Shown in pieces: positions 10,982 through 35,658 of a stretch of DNA of 64,000 nt. Every line of letters starts with the position of its first letter. The stretch's first letter is position 1. The notes beneath the pieces are model-generated. The model ran no database searches, had not been told where the DNA came from, and worked only from the letters and a program-made list of their open reading frames with translations. The position numbers and the translations under genes were made by a program. Origin of the DNA: Trueperaceae bacterium (lineage in GTDB: Bacteria > Deinococcota > Deinococci > Deinococcales > Trueperaceae); the NCBI GenBank assembly GCA_965215565.1, contig CBDCDZ010000004.1, forward strand, positions 3,680,001 to 3,744,000. The letters run 5' to 3'.

Positions 10982-11166
10982 GGTTCGGGCTCGAAGCGGA
11001 TGCCCCTGTCTCCTGGATAGGGTTCGCGGTGGTCGTGCTCGCCGTCTAAAATTGCATTCGGTATCCGCTCGGGAAAGGCGGCGCAGCGAGCGGAGCCGAA
11101 GTGATGAGTGCAGCGGTTACACAGCGGACTGTAGAAGGTCATGCCCTCCTCGACAATCCTGCTCAT
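10978..11166 (-). CDS. Small Cys/His-rich protein (62 aa), putative metal-binding
   Basis: CNRCTH...CAAFPERIP...[19 protein letters not shown] overlap with the upstream MBL gene. Confidence 0.75.
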
Positions 11167-12194
11167 GGCAGCGACTCACACGCCACGCCGTCGTTGTTGC
11201 CGTCAAGTCGGTGAGGGTCGCCCGCCCCAGCAGCCTCATAGAACGCTTGCGCCTCAGCTTGGCTCGAGAAGTCCCCACAGTCCCTATCCGGTCCGCTCGG
11301 GTCGTAGGTGAGGCCGCTCGAGGTGGATGTGCTTGGAGCTGAGCTGGTAGCGCTCGGCGCATCAGGCTGAGGCTGCACCTGCTGTACGGGTGACGCCGCG
11401 CTCACTTGATAGGTTCCATCCTCGTTCGCCACGACAACGACCGTCCCTTGCAAATCAGTGCGGTAGATATCAGCGTTCACTGCACTATATAGCCTGAGCG
11501 CCCTTTCTGCCGGGTGATTGTAGGAGTTGTCCAAGCCTGCCGAGATAACCACTGTCTCCGGCTTGAACCGGCTCATCGAAAGCGGCGTGTCTCCGTTCTC
11601 ACTCCCGTGGTGGCTGGCTTTGTACACATCTACGTCCTCGAGCAATTCGGGCACGTTCTCAACCCACCACGCGAACTGCGCCCGCTCCGCGTCACCCGTG
11701 AGCGCGAGCTCGAACGCCCCGTAGGTGAGGACAAGTCCTACCGAGTTGTCGTTGTTACCGAGCGAAGGAATGCCAGGCGGCGGCAAGACTTGTAACGACG
11801 CCTCCCCTAAGCCGATGCGCCGTGCCGTCGGCGGCACCTTGGCGATACCTAGCTCGTTGAGTGCGGCGTCTAAGTCTCTGTAGGCGGCGCTCCCGTAGTC
11901 GAAGCCGTTGTCCAGGAACGCCCTCGGCTGGTACGCCCGCACCACCGCCTCCAAGCCGCCGATGTGGTCGAAGTCGGGGTGGCTGGCGATGACCAAGTCG
12001 AGTGACTTGACCCCGACATCTTGGAGGTACTCGAGTACCTGCGTCTCCCTACGTCCGCCATCATAGAGAACGTTCCTACCGTCGTGGGTGCGGATCAGCA
12101 CGCTGTCCCCTTGCCCGACATCAACGAAGTGGATTTCGAGTTGGGCGGACGCGACGCTCAGCAGGAGCGCCAGGAGGACGGCGAGCCGTTTCAT
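11163..12194 (-). CDS. Secreted ComEC/Rec2-type MBL-fold hydrolase with C-terminal Excalibur domain
   Basis: Signal peptide; [50 protein letters not shown]...[12 protein letters not shown]. Confidence 0.92.
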
Positions 12195-23528: not shown

Positions 23529-25169
23529 TTATGTAGAGACCAGCGAACTTCTTACCAACCGTGAATCTGTTGTAAAGGCAGATTCCTGCTGCGGGGGCAG
23601 CGCTATCACTCTGTCAAAATTATGGCGAAGGTCGTGTGCGTCGTGAGCTATCACGATAAGCCCTTTTCCTCTCGTGTAATGCAGAATAGCGTCATTGACT
23701 ACCTTCCTGCCGCTGTCATCGACGTTGGCGAAAGGCTCATCTAAAATGTATAAGGAGGCAGTCTTGAGTAGTACCATCAGGACAGAAAACTTCTTTTTCT
23801 GACCTAATGATAAGTCGTCGAAGCGGTTGTCAAGGCATTTATCGAGTTTGAGGAGGTACAGTAACTTTTGCGCTTCCTCTAACCTCTCCCCAGCGATAAG
23901 CTGACCGATCGGTAGATTCGGGAAACAGACGGGTTCGACTGCGGCGCTGACCTCTCCCGACAAAGTCACCTGGCCTTCAGTCGGTTTTAGAAAACCTGAA
24001 AGGATGTTGGCCAGGGTACTTTTACCCGACCCGTTGGGACCTATGAGCAAAACTCTTTCGCCCGGTTCGAGATTGAAGTAATAATTCTCGAACACAGGTA
24101 CATCCTCGTAAGCATAACAAAGGTTCTGGACGGAGAGACGTGCCCCGGAATAAGGGAGACGTACTTGGTGTGTATCCTCCTTTCCACATAACTCCGTGAC
24201 TCGGTCGACTGAGGCCATGAGCGAGGCCAGTTCGGGCACTAAACCTATCAGCGTACTGGTAGAACTGACAACGTTCCAGAAAGCGTTCATGAAACCCATG
24301 AACCCACCGAAATTTAGCGTCCCTGTCAGTACAGCATAGCCGCCAGCGATAGTGGCTATGAATTCGATGAGGCTCATGGAGATGCCGCTCAAAGTCGCGT
24401 AAGTACTTTCGGTCTGAACCTTAGTCTTTTGAGAGTTTGCATAGGCTTGGTAGTGTCTGCGGGAATGCAACTGCACTAGAGCGCGTAGATCGAACATGTT
24501 CACGGTTTTATGAGCTTTGACGATACCGGTAACCCAACCTTTGAAGGCAGCTTCCCCTTCGTCGGTATCTCGACTTTGTTCATAAACCTTGGACGAGAAG
24601 TGTGTGGTTGCCCAGAGGAGGAAGGGAACGACACAGAGCAAGGACACTGTTAGTTGCCACGAAATGAATGTGATGACAGACAGCGCCCCTATCAGGCTCA
24701 CGATCGTCGTTACAACAGTAAGAACGCTATCGACGATAGGACGTGAGGCTTTATCCGACTCATCTACGATTCTGGACACGTAGTACCCCTCATCGCGTTC
24801 TATAGTTTCCTGGTGAGGCGTTCTCAAAAACCCTTGAAGTGCTCTTAGTGTCAGGGATTCGCCTAACCTGAGCTTCAACTGCTCGACATAGTTCATATAT
24901 CGAAGATCGAGCAGGCGTAGACCCGTAAAGAAGATGAGCGACCCCAACCCCAAAGCTACGAATAGGCTGAAGTTTCCTGCTATCACGCCTTCGTCGAACA
25001 TGTATTTGATGACGAGCGGGTTGACAACCGAGACGACAAGTGCCACCGACGATCCCCACAACAGAGAGAACAGAAAACGCTTTCTCGAATCCCCGACGAT
25101 AGCACCTAACTTCTTCACCCCACTCGCCACTTGCTGGACGGTTAGGGCCTTCCTCTTTGAGGCGCTCAC
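23529..25169 (-). CDS. ABC exporter (TMD+NBD), lanthipeptide-associated
   Basis: Several N-terminal TM helices; GPNGSGKST, LSLGQ, ILDEP; GTGA overlap with the lanKC stop. Confidence 0.88.
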   Translation of the reverse strand: MSASKRKALTVQQVASGVKKLGAIVGDSRKRFLFSLLWGSSVALVVSVVNPLVIKYMFDEGVIAGNFSLFVALGLGSLIFFTGLRLLDLRYMNYVEQLKLRLGESLTLRALQGFLRTPHQETIERDEGYYVSRIVDESDKASRPIVDSVLTVVTTIVSLIGALSVITFISWQLTVSLLCVVPFLLWATTHFSSKVYEQSRDTDEGEAAFKGWVTGIVKAHKTVNMFDLRALVQLHSRRHYQAYANSQKTKVQTESTYATLSGISMSLIEFIATIAGGYAVLTGTLNFGGFMGFMNAFWNVVSSTSTLIGLVPELASLMASVDRVTELCGKEDTHQVRLPYSGARLSVQNLCYAYEDVPVFENYYFNLEPGERVLLIGPNGSGKSTLANILSGFLKPTEGQVTLSGEVSAAVEPVCFPNLPIGQLIAGERLEEAQKLLYLLKLDKCLDNRFDDLSLGQKKKFSVLMVLLKTASLYILDEPFANVDDSGRKVVNDAILHYTRGKGLIVIAHDAHDLRHNFDRVIALPPQQESAFTTDSRLVRSSLVST

Positions 25170-27886
25170 CGCGCGACCAACCGTACCGTTCGGGATTCTG
25201 ACGTAGCAGCTTCGATAGCAGCGCGCAGAGGTTCATCTAAACAAAAGTTGAGGTTCCCGGATTGACTCGCCAATCTATGACTGAACAGGGCGATGCCCGC
25301 AGACCCCGTTGCCAAGTCCGTACTTATCCTGAGGAGGTGGTCGCCGGGGAAAGCGGTTCCTGTCTCTTTGGCTATAGCGAACAGCTCGATACCTTCGTAG
25401 ACCCTGTTGCACGCGTCCAAGGCTTCCGACTCACCTGTGAACTGGTGATAGTCGAGTAGAAAGTTTCCGAGGCCGGCGAGACCGTTGAACAGACCCGGAA
25501 AGATGGTGTATTTGCGGGTCACATCGGGTAGCAGCTTGAGGAGCATATTTCCGTACTCTGGATCGCCCGTGAAAGCGTAGTACCTGAGCAGCGTAGTGCC
25601 AACGCCGGCACTACCATAGGCCAGGTAGGGGTAAATGATTGACCTGAAGTTCGTCTCTTCGGGAAAGCTGAGGTAGTTCTCTTCGGTTAGAGTCGCATAA
25701 CTCAGATCGAATGCGAGTGCTCTACGACCCCACTGCAGATAGACGGGTTTACCCGTCGCGACATGGAGATGTAAGAAGAACAGTGCGATTCCAGACGCAC
25801 CTTGCATGTAGCCGACATAGGTGGTCCCGTCGAAGCTGGGCCAGTAGTCTCCCCGCTCATTCTCCTGCTTGAAGTCGTTCAAGGTTCGAGCTATTACTTC
25901 AGCTCTTAAAAGCGAGTTTTCATTACCTATGGCATACCACTGATTGAGGTGACTCAACCCGACCCCGGCGGCACCGGTACCTAATCCGGAGGCCTGATAC
26001 AGGAGTGGGTGATGATAGGCGTTATCCAAAAGTTCTAGCGCGTCGTCCGCCTGACCTAATACGGATAGGACCCAAGCCATACCGGATGTTCCGTTATATA
26101 GCCCTGGAACGTAATGCACAAAGTCCGGAAGACGCGAGTTTATCCAGCGCATAACGTCCTTCGGGACATTTCCTAAGAGGTGCTTTAGAACATAAACGAC
26201 ACCTAAGGCGCCGTGGTCGATGCTCAGAGGGTTTTTCGCCTCTATATCGTTTGGGAAGAGACGATCGGTTCTATCGAAACTCGCTGTGCTCAAGATGTAT
26301 TGGGCGATGCTGCGATTTAGCGAGACGAGTTTTGAAGGTTTTTGACAGTGGTGTTTAATCTCAGGTACAGTTTTGAGTGCCCGGAAACACTCGACCACTT
26401 CGTCGAGCCCAGGGCGCTCGTCCTCCTTTTCGCTCAGAAGCCGTAGAACGATCTTTTTAAGGCCGAGATCGAGGCCGAAATCCTTGAGGATCGCGTCTAA
26501 AAACTTAGCGGGCGCATCTGCGTGTAGCGGCGCGAGAATAGCTGCGGGGGTGCAAAACGCAAGGATAAGCGCACCCAGAGCGTAGAGGTCGTCCTCCAAC
26601 CGTGCCGTGTTCCGCTGACTTCGATCCTTAGGCGTGAAGCCATATGTGAACATTCCGGAGCGCTCATCCGAATCCATCTCGGAAGCGCCCTCGAGGTCGA
26701 TTAACTTGACCTCCAGCGTGCTGGGATCGATTAAGACGTTGCCCAAAGACAAATCACCGACGATAATTCCGTGAGCGTGTACGGTTTGGATCGCATTAGC
26801 GAGGTTGATCACGACACACTTAAGTTCGTTGAACCAGGCCGCCACATCTTCGGGGGTACAACTCGCTTTGAGCGTTATATCTCTTTGTCCGACGAAATCC
26901 GACAGGGTTTCGCCTTCGATAAGTTGCTGAGCTAGAAATCTATGTTCCCACTCGTAAAATAGGGATAGTGGCTTGGCGGTTAGTCCTGTAGATTTGAGTC
27001 GCTCGAGAACCCTATGCTCCTTTTCTAAGCGGTTCGTCACGTCCGCGCCGTCCATACCGACATCTATGAAGGGGCGCGCCTCTTTCACCACCACAGTCTC
27101 ACCTGTTGTAGTGTCCGTCGCTTGATAAACGCCCCCTGTGTTGGAGTAGCTCAAACAGTCGAGTACGAGAAACCGTCCGTTATCGAGCACCAGCTCCTCG
27201 TCTACGTCTTCGGTAGGAAACGGGTCCACAGCCCAAGGAGGTGGGTTGAAGTAGGGGGTCCGGATGTCTTCATACTTGCTTCCGTTCGGGGCGACTAGAA
27301 AAGACAATTCTTGCCCAGAAGGGTCCAAGGAGCTTAGCGAGGCTACGCCGCCATACCGGTAGTACAGCACTTTGCAGTCTTTGTACCGCTTGTCACTCAG
27401 GATGTAAGGGCCGCTGAAATCTTTGAGCACCTCGTAGAGCGCTTGAATAAGGTGCTTGAACGCTTCTTCGTCGGCTGGGTATACAGTCATAAATTTGCCC
27501 GACCCGCCGCGCGACCAGCGTTTCGAATTCATCTCGGAGAAGATGAAACGGTCGGCGGCGAACTTGAACGCCGTACCGTGTTGAGCGATGACCGGGATCG
27601 ACGCCTCCACAATTTCGTGCAAGTTGAGGGGCGTGGCCGAGATGTGTATTTTCCAGCCTTGGATAATCAGGTCAGATTTAGGGGGGCTACAATGTTGCCA
27701 CACATTTTCGGCTTTGATACGCCAGGTATCTGGTAGAACCTCTTCCACAAATCTGCGGATATCGTTATCCGGCCTATAGTCGCTCAACGTCTCGTAGAAA
27801 TCCGACTCGATGATCAGCGCCTCGCTCATATACTTGATCTTTCGATCCCATCGCTCTAGCCTTGCTTCTCCTTGCGTGCCTGACAT
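25166..27886 (-). CDS. lanKC: Class III lanthipeptide synthetase (lyase-kinase-cyclase)
   Basis: Lyase QGWKIHIS/GKFMTVYP/YYRYG; kinase GGVY/VVVKEAR/GDLSLGNV/LIDLE; LanC-like C-terminus PYLAYGSAG/GLFNGLAG/RISTDLATGSAG without WCxG/CHG zinc ligands. RBS GAGGAGG favours start 27886. Confidence 0.93.
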   Translation of the reverse strand: MSGTQGEARLERWDRKIKYMSEALIIESDFYETLSDYRPDNDIRRFVEEVLPDTWRIKAENVWQHCSPPKSDLIIQGWKIHISATPLNLHEIVEASIPVIAQHGTAFKFAADRFIFSEMNSKRWSRGGSGKFMTVYPADEEAFKHLIQALYEVLKDFSGPYILSDKRYKDCKVLYYRYGGVASLSSLDPSGQELSFLVAPNGSKYEDIRTPYFNPPPWAVDPFPTEDVDEELVLDNGRFLVLDCLSYSNTGGVYQATDTTTGETVVVKEARPFIDVGMDGADVTNRLEKEHRVLERLKSTGLTAKPLSLFYEWEHRFLAQQLIEGETLSDFVGQRDITLKASCTPEDVAAWFNELKCVVINLANAIQTVHAHGIIVGDLSLGNVLIDPSTLEVKLIDLEGASEMDSDERSGMFTYGFTPKDRSQRNTARLEDDLYALGALILAFCTPAAILAPLHADAPAKFLDAILKDFGLDLGLKKIVLRLLSEKEDERPGLDEVVECFRALKTVPEIKHHCQKPSKLVSLNRSIAQYILSTASFDRTDRLFPNDIEAKNPLSIDHGALGVVYVLKHLLGNVPKDVMRWINSRLPDFVHYVPGLYNGTSGMAWVLSVLGQADDALELLDNAYHHPLLYQASGLGTGAAGVGLSHLNQWYAIGNENSLLRAEVIARTLNDFKQENERGDYWPSFDGTTYVGYMQGASGIALFFLHLHVATGKPVYLQWGRRALAFDLSYATLTEENYLSFPEETNFRSIIYPYLAYGSAGVGTTLLRYYAFTGDPEYGNMLLKLLPDVTRKYTIFPGLFNGLAGLGNFLLDYHQFTGESEALDACNRVYEGIELFAIAKETGTAFPGDHLLRISTDLATGSAGIALFSHRLASQSGNLNFCLDEPLRAAIEAATSESRTVRLVAR

Positions 27887-27927
27887 TGTCTTTCCCTCCT
27901 CAGTCCTCGAATTTCGTCGGTATGACG

Positions 27928-27952
27928 GCGCGCTTGGCACTGCCAAGCGCGC
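27928..27952. terminator. Perfect inverted repeat between lanA and lanKC
   Basis: GCGCGCTTGGCA-C-TGCCAAGCGCGC, no U-tract. Confidence 0.6.
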
Positions 27953-28394: not shown

Positions 28395-28883
28395 TTAACC
28401 TTGTTTCGTAACACGCGCTACCCCAAAGACCTCTACCCACCCCTCCTTCACCGCCTGCATCCCCATGAGCTTCTCCGGCTCCTCGCTGACGACCATCAGG
28501 ACAGCATTCTCCTCCCTAAGTCTCTCTTTGAGGGTTCTCACTCTACGGGCTACGATGACCCTGCCGTACTTGCCATGCCCGCAGAGTAAGTAATACTTCT
28601 TGCCTTCGGATGAACACAAGCTAATGAGCGAAGGACCCTCCTTCTGTATATAGGTCCAGCCTCGAGCCTCGAGCATTTCTCGCGCTCTGCGCCTGATGAC
28701 ATGTCCAGCAGCGGCGCTAGATGTGGAGTACCCTTGATTTACGCCGAGTGCACTTCTGCCTCTCGTTGTGAGCAAGACCAACTCACCCGAGGAGCTGTCC
28801 AGAGTCGTGAGGTAGCCTCTGCCGATCAAACGCTTCAAATCGACGACGCGCCTCGCTCGCGATATCCATACGGTCCGCACCAT
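28395..28883 (-). CDS. Basic hypothetical protein (162 aa) coupled to tniQ; possible winged-helix N-terminus
   Basis: ATG 3 nt after the tniQ stop; LKRLIGRGYL...VLLTTRGRSALG resembles a wHTH C-terminal motif. Confidence 0.7.
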   Translation of the reverse strand: MVRTVWISRARRVVDLKRLIGRGYLTTLDSSSGELVLLTTRGRSALGVNQGYSTSSAAAGHVIRRRAREMLEARGWTYIQKEGPSLISLCSSEGKKYYLLCGHGKYGRVIVARRVRTLKERLREENAVLMVVSEEPEKLMGMQAVKEGWVEVFGVARVTKQG

Positions 28884-28886
28884 GCT

Positions 28887-29993
28887 CTAAGAAGTCGCGC
28901 AAGTCGGACCTGTTTGCTCACTCAGGTCACGATAGGGTCCGAGCAGCGCTCGATGCTCCTCTTCGAACCGTATTCTGGCGCTATGCGCTTTCGAGATGGC
29001 GGCCTCGAGCCAGGCGGGAACCTCGGACCAGATAGTCAGCAGCTTAGGCTGAGTCATCCCCGTCTGCGCGTAAGCTTGAATAAAGCGCTCGGGCCAGCCC
29101 TCCATGAGCCACGCCAGCATCGTCATAACTATGTGACGATGCTCGGAAGGCTGGTACTCGAAGTCGTTCGACGTAGCTTTGAGGTCGAAGTCGACGTGAC
29201 CCAGCCCGACACGCTGGGCGACGTAGGTGCTGAAAGGGCGTGTATAGCGCAAACCCATGAGCGTCGTGACGAGGATGCGCAGTCCGTCGAAGTAGGCAAC
29301 GCTCGAAAGGTCGCCGTCGTCGGAAAGGGTGACGGAGCCAGCATCTAGCACGCTCAACAGATGAGCTTGAAACGCGCTTACGCTCGTGTCTGCTTTCTCT
29401 AAATGCGAGACCTCGACTGCGCTCAGGTCTGCGCCGCATTCGTAACAGCGATTGATAGGTATACCGGAGGGAACGCGGCTCTCCGTGTGAGCGCCCACAT
29501 CGACTTTGTAAGGGGCGATAGGCGCGTCGCAACTCGGACAGTGGTCACGCAGGGGCGTATCGTGCTCGGGGCACACGGTGACAAAGGCGAGCCGCCATAT
29601 CCGCCGAAAGTAGAGCGGTTCTTGTGCCAGGCATAGGGGACAATATTGTAAACCGTATCGTCTGCTCCTTCGGCGTATATGACCCACACGCAAGGTCCAG
29701 CGGTTGCTGTTACTAGGGTCGTGCTCGGCGTAGAGCCGACCCGCATAGGACCAGAGGGTCGCTCGGTAGAGGCGCTCGACGCTTACACCGGATTTGAACG
29801 ACAGGGGGAGGAGCAACCGTAGAGAAGCCGATTTGTCGATGTCACGCCACCACACCTCCAAATCCGCGACGGCGAGCGTCGTGAAGTTCTGGAGCTTCTG
29901 CTTGTTTCCCTTCGCCGAGCGTATGAGCCAACTGCTGAGCAGCTCGTCGGGTAGGGGCTGCGGATGGACCGGCCAGAGGTTACCCGAGAGCAT
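28887..29993 (-). CDS. tniQ: TniQ family target-selection protein (368 aa)
   Basis: PQPLPDELLSSWLIR, YCPLCL..YFRRIWR..VCPEH..LRDHCPSC...RCYECG, plus a C-terminal extension. Confidence 0.93.
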   Translation of the reverse strand: MLSGNLWPVHPQPLPDELLSSWLIRSAKGNKQKLQNFTTLAVADLEVWWRDIDKSASLRLLLPLSFKSGVSVERLYRATLWSYAGRLYAEHDPSNSNRWTLRVGHIRRRSRRYGLQYCPLCLAQEPLYFRRIWRLAFVTVCPEHDTPLRDHCPSCDAPIAPYKVDVGAHTESRVPSGIPINRCYECGADLSAVEVSHLEKADTSVSAFQAHLLSVLDAGSVTLSDDGDLSSVAYFDGLRILVTTLMGLRYTRPFSTYVAQRVGLGHVDFDLKATSNDFEYQPSEHRHIVMTMLAWLMEGWPERFIQAYAQTGMTQPKLLTIWSEVPAWLEAAISKAHSARIRFEEEHRALLGPYRDLSEQTGPTCATS

Positions 29994-29995
29994 CC

Positions 29996-30916
29996 CTAAA
30001 GAAGCTTCTCGACTTCCGCGCGACGCTTGGACACGGGAACCCACTTGAGGGCGTTTAGCGCGTCCTCGTCGATACGCTCCGTGCCCGTGCGGATCGCGAT
30101 GACCGCTGAGCGCGTCAGGATTTTGGAGAGTTCGCCGAGGAGCCCCTCGGACATGGTGAGGAGCCGCGTTGCCATGTCGTTCGCTGTGAGGTTCGAAGGC
30201 TTTGCGAGCGGAAGGGTTTTCTCAAAGCTCACGAGGAGCCGCCCGTACTCCGCGTCTTTCTTCCAGTTGGGCAGGACTTCTTTGTCGAAGCGGCTGTCGA
30301 GGTGAGGGTCGCTTCGCAGAAAGCGGAGCGCTTCTTTCGTCCCTAAGGCGACCAGGGGAATTTTCAGCTCGTTCCCGATATATTTGATAACGTTGCGCAC
30401 CTCCCCCTGCTTCCGCGCCGTGCCGGTCAGTAAGTGGTGGAACTCGTCGATCATCAACATCTTCGTGCCGGTCTCTTGGAGGATGCCGATAGCCTGGTCC
30501 TGCTTCTGGCTCGCCTTGTCCGTCTTGCGGTAGGGGGCGAACAGGACCTTGAGAATCTCCTCGTAGAAACGCCCTTCGTCGGCGACCGAGGGCGCGTGGA
30601 ACGAGACGACAGGCGCGTAGATGGTCTCGCCGTCTGCGTTGTCGCGGGCGGGGAAGTCGCGCTGGAAGCGCCTGGCGAGCTGCGTCTTACCGTTAAACGT
30701 GTTGCCCACGATGAGCAGATTCTGGGCGCGTCCCCGGTCGTAGTGGGGCTCGGTCGGGTCGCCGAGCAGGTCCTCGAGCCGGTCGCGGATTTCGCGGGCG
30801 CGGGTGTAGCCGATCCAGCGGAAGGTCTTGATGTAGCGGATACGCTCCTCGTCGCTCCAGGTCAGAATCTCGCGGGCGCGTTCGGTCAGGTGGTCTTGAG
30901 ACACCGCAGAACCCAT
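29996..30916 (-). CDS. tnsC: TnsC/TniB family AAA+ ATPase
   Basis: RWIGY, GNTFNGKT, MLMIDEFHH, LVALGT, DPHLDSRF, SEGLLGEL. Confidence 0.93.
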   Translation of the reverse strand: MGSAVSQDHLTERAREILTWSDEERIRYIKTFRWIGYTRAREIRDRLEDLLGDPTEPHYDRGRAQNLLIVGNTFNGKTQLARRFQRDFPARDNADGETIYAPVVSFHAPSVADEGRFYEEILKVLFAPYRKTDKASQKQDQAIGILQETGTKMLMIDEFHHLLTGTARKQGEVRNVIKYIGNELKIPLVALGTKEALRFLRSDPHLDSRFDKEVLPNWKKDAEYGRLLVSFEKTLPLAKPSNLTANDMATRLLTMSEGLLGELSKILTRSAVIAIRTGTERIDEDALNALKWVPVSKRRAEVEKLL

Positions 30917-32788
30917 CTAACCCTCCTCGAGTTCGTCGAAGGGCTCCAAATCGTCGAACATGAACGGGGCCTCTTCATCCGGCGTGTCGTCGGTCTTGGT
31001 GGTCGTCTCCGCGACGGGCGCGTCCTCAGCAGCCTTGGCGTGATCGGAACGGCGCTGGACGTTGCGGCGGGCCGACTTGGTTTTGCGGGCTGCTTCGCTC
31101 TCGATGCGCCGCATCTCCGCGATGGCTTTGAACAGGGCGTCCTCGTCGACCTCCTGCTGGAGCACCTTCTTGATGTGTCTGATCGCCCGCTTGACCTCCC
31201 AAATGGACACGGGCGGGTGGAGCGCGTTCCCGTAGGGGATTTCGAAGTAGGTGTCCAGGTCTGGGTCGAGGAAGTAGATGCGGCTCAGGTCCCTGGGGTC
31301 GTAGCGGAAGGTGAAATAGCGCGGTTCCTTAGGGTGGTCGGGGTCTCGTGCGCCGATCCAGGGGTGGAGCACGTCGCTGTAATACTCAATGTAGTTGAAG
31401 GCGATGCCGTAGCGCTGGACGCTGTGCTTATTGTCGTAGGGCATGAAGTCGAGACGAAGGCGCATCTCGTCCGTCGCCTTCTCGGGCAGACCGCGCCCGA
31501 GTTCGGTCTTCGTGCCGAAGATGCCGCGCTTGTACTTCGCCGCCGGGGTGCTCATGATCCCCATGTGGGGGCGGTTGTGATACTTCATCAGCAGGTTCGC
31601 GAACCACGACTCGAACTCGGAAAGCGTCATGATGGCCTTTTTCTCCGAATCGTACTCGCCCTTGTCCTTGTAGTTGCTGAAGGTCGTACCGGGCAGCTTC
31701 TGAATATCGGTGGCGAAAGTGCCCATGAGTCGCTCGATGTGTGCGCCGTGCTTGGGCTCCCCGTTGCCGCGGAAATCCGAGATGATGTCGTACTCCTCGC
31801 AGGCACGCTCAAGCATCTTGCCGCGGAACTCCTTGGCGTTGTCCGCGTGGACCGCCTCAGGGAAACCCCAGCAGTCCCAGGTCGCGTCCACCCCGAGCTG
31901 CTCCAGCCAAGCGTGTTTAGGCAGAATAGCGCGGTACAAGCACATTCCGACGGCATTGGCGTTGGGTGGGTCGAAAGAGATGTAGAAACCCAGCCCGACG
32001 CGGCTGTAGACGTCGATGGCGACGGTCGCATAGGGTCTGCCGATGGGCAGGCGGTAGATGTCGTCGACCAGCTCAACGTCGAAGGGCGTGTGGTCGATCT
32101 GGACGGTCTCCAAGGGAAACGTCGCGTTCGGGAACTTGCCGACTTGCGGCTCGTAGTCGGCGGCGGCTTTTCTGCCCCGGCGACGCAGCGCTTTCGTGCG
32201 GTCGCTGATCTCGGTGATGCGGTTGCGTACTGTATTGGGGTGGGGCGCTTTGAGTTTGGCGGCTTTGCACCTACTGACGACCTCGTCGCACGTGTCCTTC
32301 ACCGAGAAGCGTTGGTCTGAGAGATAGACCTCCTTAATGGTCTCCTCGATGATGGTTTCGACCTCGGGTACCAGGCGGTTACCTTTAGGCCCCGACTTGG
32401 CGGCGAGCAGGGCACTCGTCGTTCCTTCACTCTCGTGCGCCTTGAGCCAGCGGTAAAGGGTGGCGGGGTGCACGCCGACCTCCCGCGCCCGCGTCTCGAT
32501 GTCGGCGCGGCTCCGCCCTTTCAGGTCGAGAAGCGGTTTGATCGCCGCGAGGCGTTTGGACGCCCGCTCCCAAGCGTCGTCGCTCGCGGTGACGGTCGCG
32601 GTGTGGACGAATGGGTCGGCTTCGCCTACGCCTGCGGGTTTCAAACCGTGCAAGGGAAGACGTGTGACCTTGTCCGAGCCTGCGGGGTTTGCCAGTACGG
32701 TGTCCATGTCGACCACGTGGGTGACGATATAGGGTCGCCCGTCGTAGCTGACCTCGGTTTTCTCCTCTATGCTGAAGCGTACGTTCAC
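30917..32788 (-). CDS. tnsB: TnsB/TniA DDE transposase (Mu-like C-terminus)
   Basis: HTH (ATLYRWL), QIDHT, GRPY..VAIDVYSR, HADNAKEF, HIERLMGT, YHNRPH, RYDPRDLSRIY. Confidence 0.95.
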   Translation of the reverse strand: MNVRFSIEEKTEVSYDGRPYIVTHVVDMDTVLANPAGSDKVTRLPLHGLKPAGVGEADPFVHTATVTASDDAWERASKRLAAIKPLLDLKGRSRADIETRAREVGVHPATLYRWLKAHESEGTTSALLAAKSGPKGNRLVPEVETIIEETIKEVYLSDQRFSVKDTCDEVVSRCKAAKLKAPHPNTVRNRITEISDRTKALRRRGRKAAADYEPQVGKFPNATFPLETVQIDHTPFDVELVDDIYRLPIGRPYATVAIDVYSRVGLGFYISFDPPNANAVGMCLYRAILPKHAWLEQLGVDATWDCWGFPEAVHADNAKEFRGKMLERACEEYDIISDFRGNGEPKHGAHIERLMGTFATDIQKLPGTTFSNYKDKGEYDSEKKAIMTLSEFESWFANLLMKYHNRPHMGIMSTPAAKYKRGIFGTKTELGRGLPEKATDEMRLRLDFMPYDNKHSVQRYGIAFNYIEYYSDVLHPWIGARDPDHPKEPRYFTFRYDPRDLSRIYFLDPDLDTYFEIPYGNALHPPVSIWEVKRAIRHIKKVLQQEVDEDALFKAIAEMRRIESEAARKTKSARRNVQRRSDHAKAAEDAPVAETTTKTDDTPDEEAPFMFDDLEPFDELEEG

Positions 32789-32796
32789 GTTCTCTC

Positions 32797-33448
32797 CTAC
32801 CGGAGCGACCAGAGAGGGCTGTCTACCGCCAGCTTCTCGGTGAGGTCTACGCCGACTTGTCGCAAAGCGATGAGCTGATAGAGGACAGGCAGGTATTTGG
32901 CGCGTTCCAATTCCGTTTTAGCGAGCGCGGCGAGGAGGTCCGCGGGTGTCGCCTCTCCCAACTTGTCCAAGATGCTGAGAATCATCCGAATACGCCCGTC
33001 GTTAGAGGGTGTCTTCATGTAGCGACGTAGGAACTTGGCGTTATCCAGGTAAGGCGTGCGAATCTCTTCTTCGGTGACGATCTCGAAGTCCATGTTCCGC
33101 GCTTCGGCGTAGACAGTAGCTTCCGCGAATTTAGGGGCGTACGCTTCGGCGTGCAGCTCGAGGAACTTGCGTGGCTTGACCTCGACTAAGCTGGGGCGCA
33201 TCTCCCTGGCAGGCATGATGTCGCGCCGATAGTGGACGAGGAAGTCGGGCGTATACTCGTGCTCGTCGCCTTCGGCGTCCTTGTAGGGGATAGTGACGGG
33301 CTGCTCCTCGAAGGTCTCGAAGGTCGAAGCGGAGCAAGATCATGTAGTCGCGCTCTAAACCCGACTCGTAACCGCGCATCCCGCCGTCACCTGTCGGGAC
33401 GCGACCCGAGGGTCTGTTGGATTTACCGACGACATCTCGTTGGGGCAT
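32797..33448 (-). pseudogene. tnsA: TnsA endonuclease split by a +1 frameshift near 33320
   Basis: Frame 1: YESGLERDYMILLRFD. Frame 2: ETFEEQPVTIPY...YTPDFLV...LVEVKP...FEIVTEEEIRTPYLDNAKFL. Confidence 0.88.
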
Positions 33449-33475
33449 GAAGATAAAACCTTCCTATCTGAAAAC

Positions 33476-33598
33476 AGTCGCACGAATTATTGTGGGTTTG
33501 CAAGACAGTCGCATAGATTATTGTATACAGTCGCACGGATTATTGGTTGAAACAGGATGAAAAGGGGGTCTGAGTCGCATAGACTATTGTATCTGACA
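33476..33598 (-). repeat. Tn7-like transposon end: 5'-TGTCAGAT terminus + four putative TnsB-binding sites
   Basis: Plus-strand AGTCGCACGAATTATTGT (33476-33493), AGTCGCATAGATTATTGT (33507-33524), AGTCGCACGGATTATTGG (33529-33546), AGTCGCATAGACTATTGT (33573-33590), then ATCTGACA (33591-33598). Confidence 0.93.
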
Positions 33599-35161
33599 GC
33601 GCCCCGGCAGCCGCACGAGCACGCTATCGCCCTGCCCGACGTCGAGAAAGATCAGCTCAGACGCGCCTCTGTCCGCCGTAACCGCTGAGCTAAGCACCGC
33701 GACGGTGACGACGAGCAGACCGCGCCAAGGGCGCATATATCCCCTGACCGCAAGTACAAAGGCTAGCGCACCAACCGCATAAAAAGCGTAACCAAGTGTT
33801 GAAATCTCGCCCCAGGTGAGCACGGGAAGCCCTGCTGCCGCGTCCGCCAAGCGCAAGAGGTTCGTCGCCAAAAGGCCCGTGATGAGGTTGAGCGCGCCCG
33901 CCAGCGGGAGCGAAACCAGCCCGAGCAGCCCCGATAAGAAACCGAGCGGCACGAGCAGCGTCGCCAAAGGAATCGCGACGACATTGACGAGCGGGCTGAA
34001 GAGCGGCACGCTGCCAAAGGTGCTCGCTACGAGAGGTAACGAGAGCGCTTGCGCGGCGATACTGACAACGACGCTACCCAAGAGGAGCGTTTTAGGATGC
34101 CACCAGGAGGGGTGCGCGCCGAGGAGACGTTTGGTCAGCGGCTCGGTGAGGAGCAGGATGCCGGTGACGGCGAGGTACGAGAGCTGAAACGAGAGGTCGA
34201 AGAGCCAAGCGGGGTGCCACAACAGGGTGACGAGCGCTGCGAGCGACAGCGCCGACCACGGTTCAATACGTCCGCTCCCGAGCCAAAGTGACGCAAGCAC
34301 CGCGCCGACCATCAAGCTCGCCCGCAAGACGCTCGGGCTCGCGCCGACGAGCAAGACGAAACCGACGAGCAGGAGCATCATGACCGGGTAGCGGCGCTGT
34401 CCTAGCGGGCGAAGAGACCAGCCGACTGCGCCGACCAAAATGCCCACGTGCAGACCCGAAAGCGCCAATATGTGCGCCAGCCCGGAGACGGCGAAGACCT
34501 CACGCAACTCGCCCAGCCCGTCACGAATGCCGAGCGTCATCGCCTGCATCAGCGCGGCGCTCCGTTCGTCCAAGTTCGCGACGACGCCCCGGCGCAGCCG
34601 TTCTTTGAGAGAGGTCGTCGGAGCGGATTCGGTGACCTCTTCGACGAAAAGCTGGGCTTTGACGCCTCGCCTCATCAGGTAAGAACGGTAGTCGAAACCG
34701 CCGGGATTGCGCTTGCCCGAAGCTTCTTGCAAGGTGCCGCGCACCGTCACCTGCCCCGCGCCGACCTCATTAGAAGGGGAGAGGACGACGCGCTCCCCCT
34801 GGACCTCTTCGGGCTGCTCGAGCCGCAAATACCGCCCGTCGCTCACGCCCGAGAAGGTCATCTCTTCACCCAGTAAAGGCGCTAAAGGATTCGGCTGCGC
34901 CTCCCATACAGTGTAGCGGACGCTGCCGAGGGGCGCGAGAAGCATCAGCACGGCGAGCAGCACATGACCTCTCGAGAGACCGAACGCGGCTGCAAGCCCC
35001 GAGCCGATGAGCGTGAGCCAAAGCGGTACGCCCAAGCCCGCTAGCGCGACGCCTCCGCCCAGAAGGAGTGCCGCCGGGATGGACCAGGGCGCGAAAGGTT
35101 GAACCTCTTCCGCCGATTCGTCGTCTACACGCTCATCTCGCGCCGAGTACGCCGCGCTCAC
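33599..35161 (-). pseudogene. comEC: ComEC/Rec2 DNA uptake channel, interrupted at the start of its MBL domain
   Basis: [53 protein letters not shown], then transposon-encoded CQIQ* (stop at 33584). Confidence 0.93.
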
Positions 35162-35658
35162 AATTTGACCCAAGGACGAAGTTTTTCCAGCGTCGCCGCG
35201 CCGATGCCCGAAACGTCCAAGAGGTCTTCGACGCTCGAGAAAGGTCGCGCCGCTATAATGCGCTTCGCCAAGGCGGGACCGATGCCCGGTAAGCGGTCTA
35301 ACTCGCGTTCGCTCGCCGAGTTGAGGCTAACGCGCATCTCACCCGTTTCAGTTCGTTTGCTCGGAACAAAAACTGCGCTCCCCGCCGTGAGCGGCGCGGC
35401 AGGATTGATGAGGGTTTCTTCGGCGTCCTCTGAGAGACCGCCCGCCGCTGCGATAAGGTCTTGGAGCCTCGAGCCCCACGCGAGCGTATACACCCCAGGC
35501 GAACGCACCGCGCCCGCTATCGACACCGTGATGTCGGGCTGCACCCGCTCAATCTGAACGCGCTGCACGGTGAGCCGAGGCGCGAGGTTGAGCCCGACGA
35601 GCAGCGCACAGAGCGCCACGAGGCTCCAGGTAACGAGGGTTTCTTGACGCGGCGTCAC
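35158..35658 (-). CDS. comEA: ComEA DNA-binding protein (SLBB + HhH)
   Basis: GAVRSPGVY, LNSASERELDRLPGIGPALAKRI, VSGIG. Confidence 0.93.
   Translation of the reverse strand: MTPRQETLVTWSLVALCALLVGLNLAPRLTVQRVQIERVQPDITVSIAGAVRSPGVYTLAWGSRLQDLIAAAGGLSEDAEETLINPAAPLTAGSAVFVPSKRTETGEMRVSLNSASERELDRLPGIGPALAKRIIAARPFSSVEDLLDVSGIGAATLEKLRPWVKL

Follow-up and report, generated by a model that had tools for sequence, protein, structure and literature searches.

The 64,000-nucleotide stretch of DNA analyzed here (the window; contig CBDCDZ010000004.1 of a Trueperaceae bacterium, C4 below, positions 3,680,001 to 3,744,000) carries part of a Tn7-like transposon that interrupts the competence gene comEC. 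Both TGT ends of the transposon were located, and the element measures 52,120 bp (C4:3661479-3713598); positions 1 to 33598 of the window belong to it, and the remainder lies upstream of the window, where the left end, a conserved left-end open reading frame (ORF), a dpd-like cluster, and the 3' part of comEC are found. The tnsA-proximal (right) end occupies 33476 to 33598 on the minus strand. It reads TGTCAGAT, with the TGT at 33598-33596 and an 8-bp terminus, followed by four 18-bp repeats, predicted to be TnsB sites, that begin 9, 53, 75, and 106 bp inside (33590-33573, 33546-33529, 33524-33507, and 33493-33476, respectively). The left end, at C4:3661479 and 18.5 kb ahead of the window, has three such repeats. 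These four and three repeats are the only matches in the 4.49-Mb genome at three or fewer mismatches, and the end pattern had no match in viral contigs; the TGT...ACA ends with arrays of TnsB sites are those of a Tn7-like transposon. The interrupted 5' part of comEC (33599 to 35173, minus strand) adjoins the tnsA end and encodes the DUF4131 and Competence domains together with the first portion of the MBL domain, the MBL-domain (3') part lying beyond the far end. The DVGQGD codons of comEC are at 33626 to 33643 on the minus strand. Upstream of comEC is a comEA-like host gene with SLBB and HhH domains (35158 to 35658, minus strand), and comEC is intact in two genomes of the same genus, G257 and G258. 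An initial annotation, drawn from the window alone, had described this clean end abutting comEC, had placed the DVGQGD codons 28-45 bp from it on the tnsA-proximal side, and had predicted a second end upstream of the window; all of this was borne out, the far end having its TGT, its repeats, and the rest of comEC. The element is a real and apparently functional Tn7-like transposon that splits comEC into two clean halves.

The operon named in that annotation, tnsA-tnsB-tnsC-tniQ, is likewise present on the minus strand, as judged by Pfam matches (TnsA N- and C-terminal domains, Mu-transpos_C, TniB, and TniQ). It comprises tnsA (32797 to 33448), tnsB (30917 to 32788, 623 aa), tnsC (29996 to 30916, a TniB-type AAA+ protein of 306 aa), and tniQ (28395 to 29993, approximately 530 aa). 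The assembly shows a frameshift in tnsA near 33320 and two indels in tniQ near 28851 and 28915. All three are corrected by short-read contigs from the same sample, in which the frames of all four genes are intact, so the broken tnsA that had been reported is an assembly error, its missing letters being present in the contigs. The reported 368-aa TniQ was also superseded: the 368-aa and 162-aa ORFs form one gene of approximately 530 aa, as in P0002-P0005 and P0008, the closest homologues are 530-539 aa long and align across both ORFs, and the homologues P0121 and P0123 read through the break. With the breaks in tnsA and tniQ attributed to assembly errors, the reading of the locus as a dead element was rejected.

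The TniQ protein consists of a TniQ core followed by a C-terminal tail with a predicted MarR-like winged helix and a restriction-endonuclease-like fold. The tail was modeled on the homologue P0121, which is encoded on a contig of 152,942 bp and is 80% identical to the tail of this TniQ, with a 7-row alignment (predicted local distance difference test score, pLDDT, of 81); a single-sequence fold of P0002 gave a pLDDT of 36 and was unusable. The homologue model matched a MarR-like winged helix-turn-helix (wHTH) domain with Z 8.6 (root-mean-square deviation, rmsd, of 3.1 over 65 aligned residues) and a restriction-endonuclease-like domain with Z 9.4 (rmsd of 2.8 over 98 aligned residues), Z-scores of 8-9 that are modest and denote a likeness of fold, which shows no function. 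The tail also resembles DUF5697/Replic_Relax (score ~0.9). It occurs as a stand-alone ORF of 175-220 aa in 6 of 363 other Deinococcota genomes, and three such contexts look, by inspection, like conjugation gene clusters. According to the available text of PMC10293859, TnsD-type selectors combine a TniQ core with a long C-terminal extension. The protein encoded here has this layout, and its tail would be expected to bind DNA. Ten of 70 family-conserved columns are altered in this TniQ, as are 10 of 70 in the TniQ of the sister element described below, and the G-V-Y-H-R segment before the zinc finger is changed in this TniQ. As a separate observation, P0002 and P0008 are near-identical over their C-terminal ~190 aa and strongly different in their N-terminal cores, a pattern in the sequences that suggests domain swapping between TniQ proteins.

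The junctions read GATGCGC|TGT at the far end and ACA|GCGCCCC on the tnsA side. Deletion of 4 bp restores a 758-aa ComEC, and deletion of 0, 3, 5, or 6 bp does not. A short-read contig of the same sample (X3 record 23) spans the right junction without differences, and contigs X3 record 12 and X4 record 20 span the left junction without a gap. In the same sample, a related organism supplies an empty comEC allele, whose sequence runs on precisely as predicted. On the basis of the junctions, the frame restoration, the short-read contigs, and the empty allele, the target-site duplication is 4 bp, the palindrome GCGC at 33599 to 33602, with its second copy preceding the left-end TGT. The 5-bp GCGCC duplication proposed by the initial annotation is not supported, as the far junction gives GCGC and only the 4-bp removal restores the frame. 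Loss of a base in assembly was excluded by the contigs that cross both junctions gap-free; a genuine loss of 1 bp after the insertion is conceivable but improbable, both halves of comEC being otherwise intact. Reviews state a 5-bp duplication for Tn7 relatives in the text available to us (PMC11406308, PMC11014353), and 5-bp duplications were found in the three relatives checked, namely the comM sister, the element in genome G020, and that at L032. The element in the window thus departs from the 5-bp duplication of Tn7-like transposons, and narrow phrase searches of the literature returned no relevant 4-bp case among Tn7 relatives. The 4-bp duplication is a deviation of this insertion or this element; by its gene content and ends, the element nevertheless belongs to the family. 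A 4-bp stagger, if reproducible, would break the 5-bp rule stated for Tn7 relatives.

A second, intact element of 46 kb lies in the same genome (C4:2978269-3024607) at the usual site in comM, between G-G and N-I-P-R-P-G-E; its duplication is 5 bp, its TniQ has 539 aa, and it lacks tnsF. Its TnsB, TnsC, and TniQ are 55%, 57%, and 58% identical, respectively, to those of the element in comEC. Related TnsB proteins occur in 21 of 364 genomes of the phylum Deinococcota; 20 of the 22 matches outside the host genome were examined, and 7 were at comM, 1 in comEC, 1 in a comF-like gene, 9 elsewhere, and 2 unusable. Related loci numbered 156; once 45 without tnsA or tnsB and 9 whose flanks were short had been set aside, 102 were usable, duplicates included. 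Fifty of these are at comM (46 facing its 3' part, 3 of them at a second position, and 4 facing its 5' part), one lies in comEC, and the other 51 are scattered. No ComEC-like flank frame was seen in the 47 of the 51 scattered relatives that were scanned; one such flank is a phosphoribosyltransferase that, from its motif, we take to be ComF. By inspection, comM elements carry either TniQ plus TnsF or a tailed TniQ, and many scattered elements carry a tailless TniQ of ~335 aa. TniQ relatives were 25-52% identical in a metagenome scan (best 80 of 401 kept) and a genome scan (56 loci). No tnsF follows tniQ in either the window element, where short ORFs and then LanKC come next, or the comM sister, and TnsF-like ORFs cluster only with other relatives. 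The sister and many TnsF-free relatives at comM suggest that comM can be targeted by TniQ alone, without TnsF, and the sequence comparisons place the window element in the comM-targeting (Tn6022-related) lineage. In the Deinococcaceae, a clade with 480-516-aa TniQ proteins (L032, L034, and L038; L035) uses a second comM position ~140 codons past the usual one, and one of its members sits in a comF-like gene.

The initial annotation had suggested that TniQ may recognise the MBL-motif codons of comEC. We ranked sequence conservation over comEC windows in 28 relatives. The tnsA-side flank falls in the top 1.5% at 28-45 bp, a window taken post hoc from that annotation, in the top 4.7% at 23-58 bp, and in the top 7.5% at 20-50 bp; the TnsD footprint runs from about +23 to +58. 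A matrix built from 23 comM sites identified the site of the sister as the best in the genome and scored the comEC site poorly overall, and whole-site comparison of the comEC and comM targets gave no identity above background. Plus-strand positions 33626-33640 (28-42 bp from the end, on the tnsA side, as in comM elements) match the comM consensus at 12 of 15 positions at offset 0, with p 0.0012, or a weak 0.035 when corrected for windows; seven other non-comM sites do not match it (p 0.22-0.90). Short-read contigs of run X4 contain two alleles of the left end (depths 9.2 and 6.5) that are distinguished by several positions, starting 19 bp inside the end; both enter the same gap-free junction. 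The X4 junction contig (depth 14.6) has letters other than those of the host genome (G000) 19 and 27 bp inside the end, the X3 contig has the G000 letters, and among the X4 contigs listed there is no difference over ~400 bp of comEC. Two alleles sharing one junction suggest, at the level of sequence, two arrivals at one base.

Because of the TnsD-sized layout of TniQ and its retention of family-conserved columns, the lack of tnsF, the conserved flank, the in-register likeness to comM, the junction shared by two alleles, and the precedent of comEC as a type I-B1 CAST target, our preferred though tentative interpretation, with a chance approaching even, is a dedicated comEC pathway in which a long TniQ, drifting away from an ancestor that read comM, came to recognise the conserved DVGQGD region. 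TniQ was likely re-aimed from comM to the conserved DVGQGD codons of comEC. Its binding site would lie ~25-55 bp beyond the tnsA-proximal end, at the point where DVGQGD, read on the antisense strand, appears to resemble the comM E-I-T-L-A-H codons; TniQ would then load TnsC, with cut-and-paste transposition by TnsAB following at a fixed offset. A TnsE-like protein encoded at the left end may provide a second, site-independent route. The break in comEC would stop DNA uptake and protect the element from curing by transformation. A more detailed version, in which a TniQ with a wHTH-nuclease-fold domain captured from conjugative elements switched from comM to antisense DVGQGD by way of the 15-bp look-alike and reproducibly makes 4-bp duplications, seems doubtful as a whole.

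Several results weigh against a dedicated comEC pathway. Conservation on the opposite side of the insertion is similar to that of the tnsA side (top 12.9%, 4.3%, and 1.9% for the same windows), and 1 of 13 other side/offset tests of the comM likeness reached p 0.048. The two-allele signal is unphased and could reflect recombination after a single insertion. In a quick TnsB tree (104 rows, with 12 duplicate loci omitted), the comM sister is the only supported neighbour of the window element (support 99). The only other Tn7-like insertion in comEC, an independent one in genome G020 (L031:5900-6400, L235), is not grouped with support and uses a different site: it follows the HADTDH motif ~140 bp downstream in the opposite orientation, with a 5-bp GAGGG duplication, a TnsB of 42% identity, and a 384-aa TniQ. 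Its own 5'-side flank is in the top 0.6-2.2% for conservation. A second, independent insertion at this base turned up in none of 364 phylum genomes, 127 family genomes, and 156 related loci, sets from which close relatives are absent, and DNA of the element ends had no match in the 127 family genomes. Runs X1 and X2, which hold small shares, served for their contigs only. Run X1, from another sample, contains a left end with 5 differences over 110 nt whose flank is neither comEC nor comM and has no homologue in G000; a second end in this run has too little flank to judge. The idea that TniQ may recognise these codons gained from the unusually conserved and comM-like flank and lost from the missing same-base insertion. 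The refuting conditions named in the initial annotation had mixed outcomes, the duplication being 4 bp instead of GCGCC, the closest mapped TniQ relative (58%) being in comM, and the near-identical X1 left end being outside comEC.

The same results bear on a one-off untargeted insertion, by TnsABC alone or by a TnsE-like route, that persisted since DNA-uptake knockouts escape curing. Half of the usable relatives (51 of 102) are in unrelated genes, of the 11 usable non-comM sites in Deinococcota one is in comEC and one in a comF-like gene, at unrelated positions, the 4-bp duplication is atypical, and a conserved left-end ORF stands where Tn6022 has TnsE; a TnsE-like route could explain the flank of the X1 end. 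Disruption of comEC by unrelated DNA was also seen: in G359, phage-like genes lie just upstream of VFLDVGQGD (L219:8700-9500), the comEC 5' part not being adjacent to them, and some of 18 selected Deinococcaceae stretches have breaks at varied comEC positions (short or partial frames) with no Tn7 genes at the break. Selection against competence is therefore a real alternative. Against an untargeted event, only 5-9% of random comEC positions have a flank this conserved, the in-register likeness to comM sites and the junction shared by two alleles would both have to be coincidences, and no profile confirms the identity of TnsE. We regard such an event as unlikely, though by no means negligible. 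If a one-off, the insertion adds to the examples of mobile elements that persist by knocking out competence.

The 12 of 15 match to the comM consensus, in register and on the tnsA side, would also fit a TniQ that still reads comM and used comEC as a look-alike secondary site, possibly while the sister occupied comM. A sister with a TniQ of 58% identity does sit at the usual comM site of this genome, and the 4-bp duplication could reflect an imperfect complex. However, ~10,000 genome positions score as well as comEC at p 0.0012, so comEC is not singled out, the whole-site similarity is poor, and the X1 flank is not comM either; moreover, the available text of PMC10293859 gives the known Tn6022 determinant as Walker B codons bound by TnsF rather than this stretch. 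A secondary comM-like site is the less probable of these two alternatives and quite unlikely taken singly; the two together slightly outweigh the dedicated pathway. We conclude that a protein-guided comEC site is plausible but unproven.

RNA guidance was considered as well. The available text of PMC9881144 includes a type I-B1 CRISPR-associated transposon (CAST) with a spacer to comEC, and the host genome has type I-E arrays and a Cascade-TniQ locus, so a host-encoded CRISPR system might have guided the insertion in trans. Yet the best of 18 array spacers matches the empty comEC site at only 21 of 32 positions and is itself mostly repeat, the spacer of the Cascade-TniQ mini-array matches ruvC only, and a crude repeat finder placed neither of the two CRISPR arrays of the genome inside the element. 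This route is very improbable and, for present-day spacers, largely refuted. The initial annotation had seen no cas genes or array; this stood for the array, of which that repeat finder saw none in the element. The cas effectors and target-matching spacer that mark a CAST were not found, the cargo having been profile-scanned in part.

Comparison with known systems places the element closest to Tn6022/AbaR in its TnsA-TnsB-TniB-type TnsC-TniQ operon, in the inactivation of a competence gene, and in carrying a gene at the left-end position of TnsE; the sister element shares the comM motif region with TnsF-bearing relatives. Tn6022 requires TnsF and the comM Walker B codons (available text of PMC10293859, PMC11014353). 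In contrast, the window element lacks tnsF and has one ~530-aa TniQ with a wHTH and restriction-endonuclease-like tail, it is in comEC rather than at the comM attachment site, its tnsA end turned toward the 5' part of comEC, and its duplication is 4 bp rather than 5 bp. As with Tn7 TnsABC+D at attTn7 (glmS), a long TniQ-family protein is combined with conserved coding sequence tens of base pairs from the tnsA-proximal end, but the window insertion disrupts its gene instead of landing downstream, the C-terminal domain differs, and site specificity is putative. The cyanobacterial type I-B1 CAST is also a Tn7-like element in comEC; it is spacer-guided, whereas the window element has no array or matching spacer (PMC9881144, Fig. 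8, from the portion available). TniQ-TnsF fusions and modular TnsD-like selectors, as far as the available text of PMC10293859 goes, share the plan of a TniQ core with a captured C-terminal domain, which in the window TniQ is not recombinase-like. Mobile elements in comEC are already known from the accessible part of PMC12378983. The supposition that comEC was undescribed as a Tn7-like site failed insofar as it is a published I-B1 CAST target, and held insofar as the literature, available in part, yielded no protein-guided comEC site. A dedicated pathway would give the essential channel for DNA uptake a protein-guided attachment site; loss of comM, by comparison, merely lowers transformation (PMC12378983, accessible part). 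It would also provide a matched pair of TniQ proteins in one genome, 58% identical and directed to comM and comEC, for mapping the change in specificity.

Homologues of the conserved ORF that lies just inside the left end occur in related loci, and in the assembly this ORF carries a frameshift. It gave no match in Pfam, NCBIfam, PDB, Atlas, or plasmid searches and is TnsE-like by position only, TnsE of Tn6022 being near the left end in the available text of PMC10293859. The cargo includes a class III lanthipeptide synthetase, LanKC, with an ABC transporter (23529 to 27946, minus strand), for which no lanthipeptide precursor peptide was identified. Upstream of the window is a dpd-like cluster (L001:18182-20000, L002:2182-9942) encoding a TGT-family protein, a DpdJ-like helicase, a DpdK-like phospholipase D protein, QueC, and a Vut_1 transporter. 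A further cargo gene (window positions 11163-12194) encodes a secreted-looking MBL-fold protein that resembles the ComEC C terminus and has its own DVGQGD motif; no element end was seen beside this gene, which lies inside an element that breaks the MBL domain of comEC.

The Cascade-TniQ locus, outside the window at L004:5887-15017 (C4 ~1,548,900-1,558,017), is a candidate Tn7-like type I-E CAST. It contains tnsA, tnsB (split by an insertion sequence-like transposase ORF), tnsC, cas8e, cas11e, cas7e, cas5e, and cas6e; a mini-array of one spacer and a tniQ in convergent orientation are also present, and cas3 was not seen within that stretch. The published I-E CAST, a preprint seen in part, lacks TniQ and retains cas3, whereas the candidate has tniQ and shows no cas3 in the stretch. 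Its other end was not found, and there was no close TnsC in 363 other genomes. Two further distant TnsB-like matches lie in the host genome at C4 ~827,000-832,000 (L005). The only genomic match to the candidate's spacer within 9 mismatches is ruvC (24 of 32 positions, with an AGG protospacer adjacent motif); this match ends at a distance of 36 bp from a TGT end, which adjoins the ruvC start and supplies an in-frame TTG.

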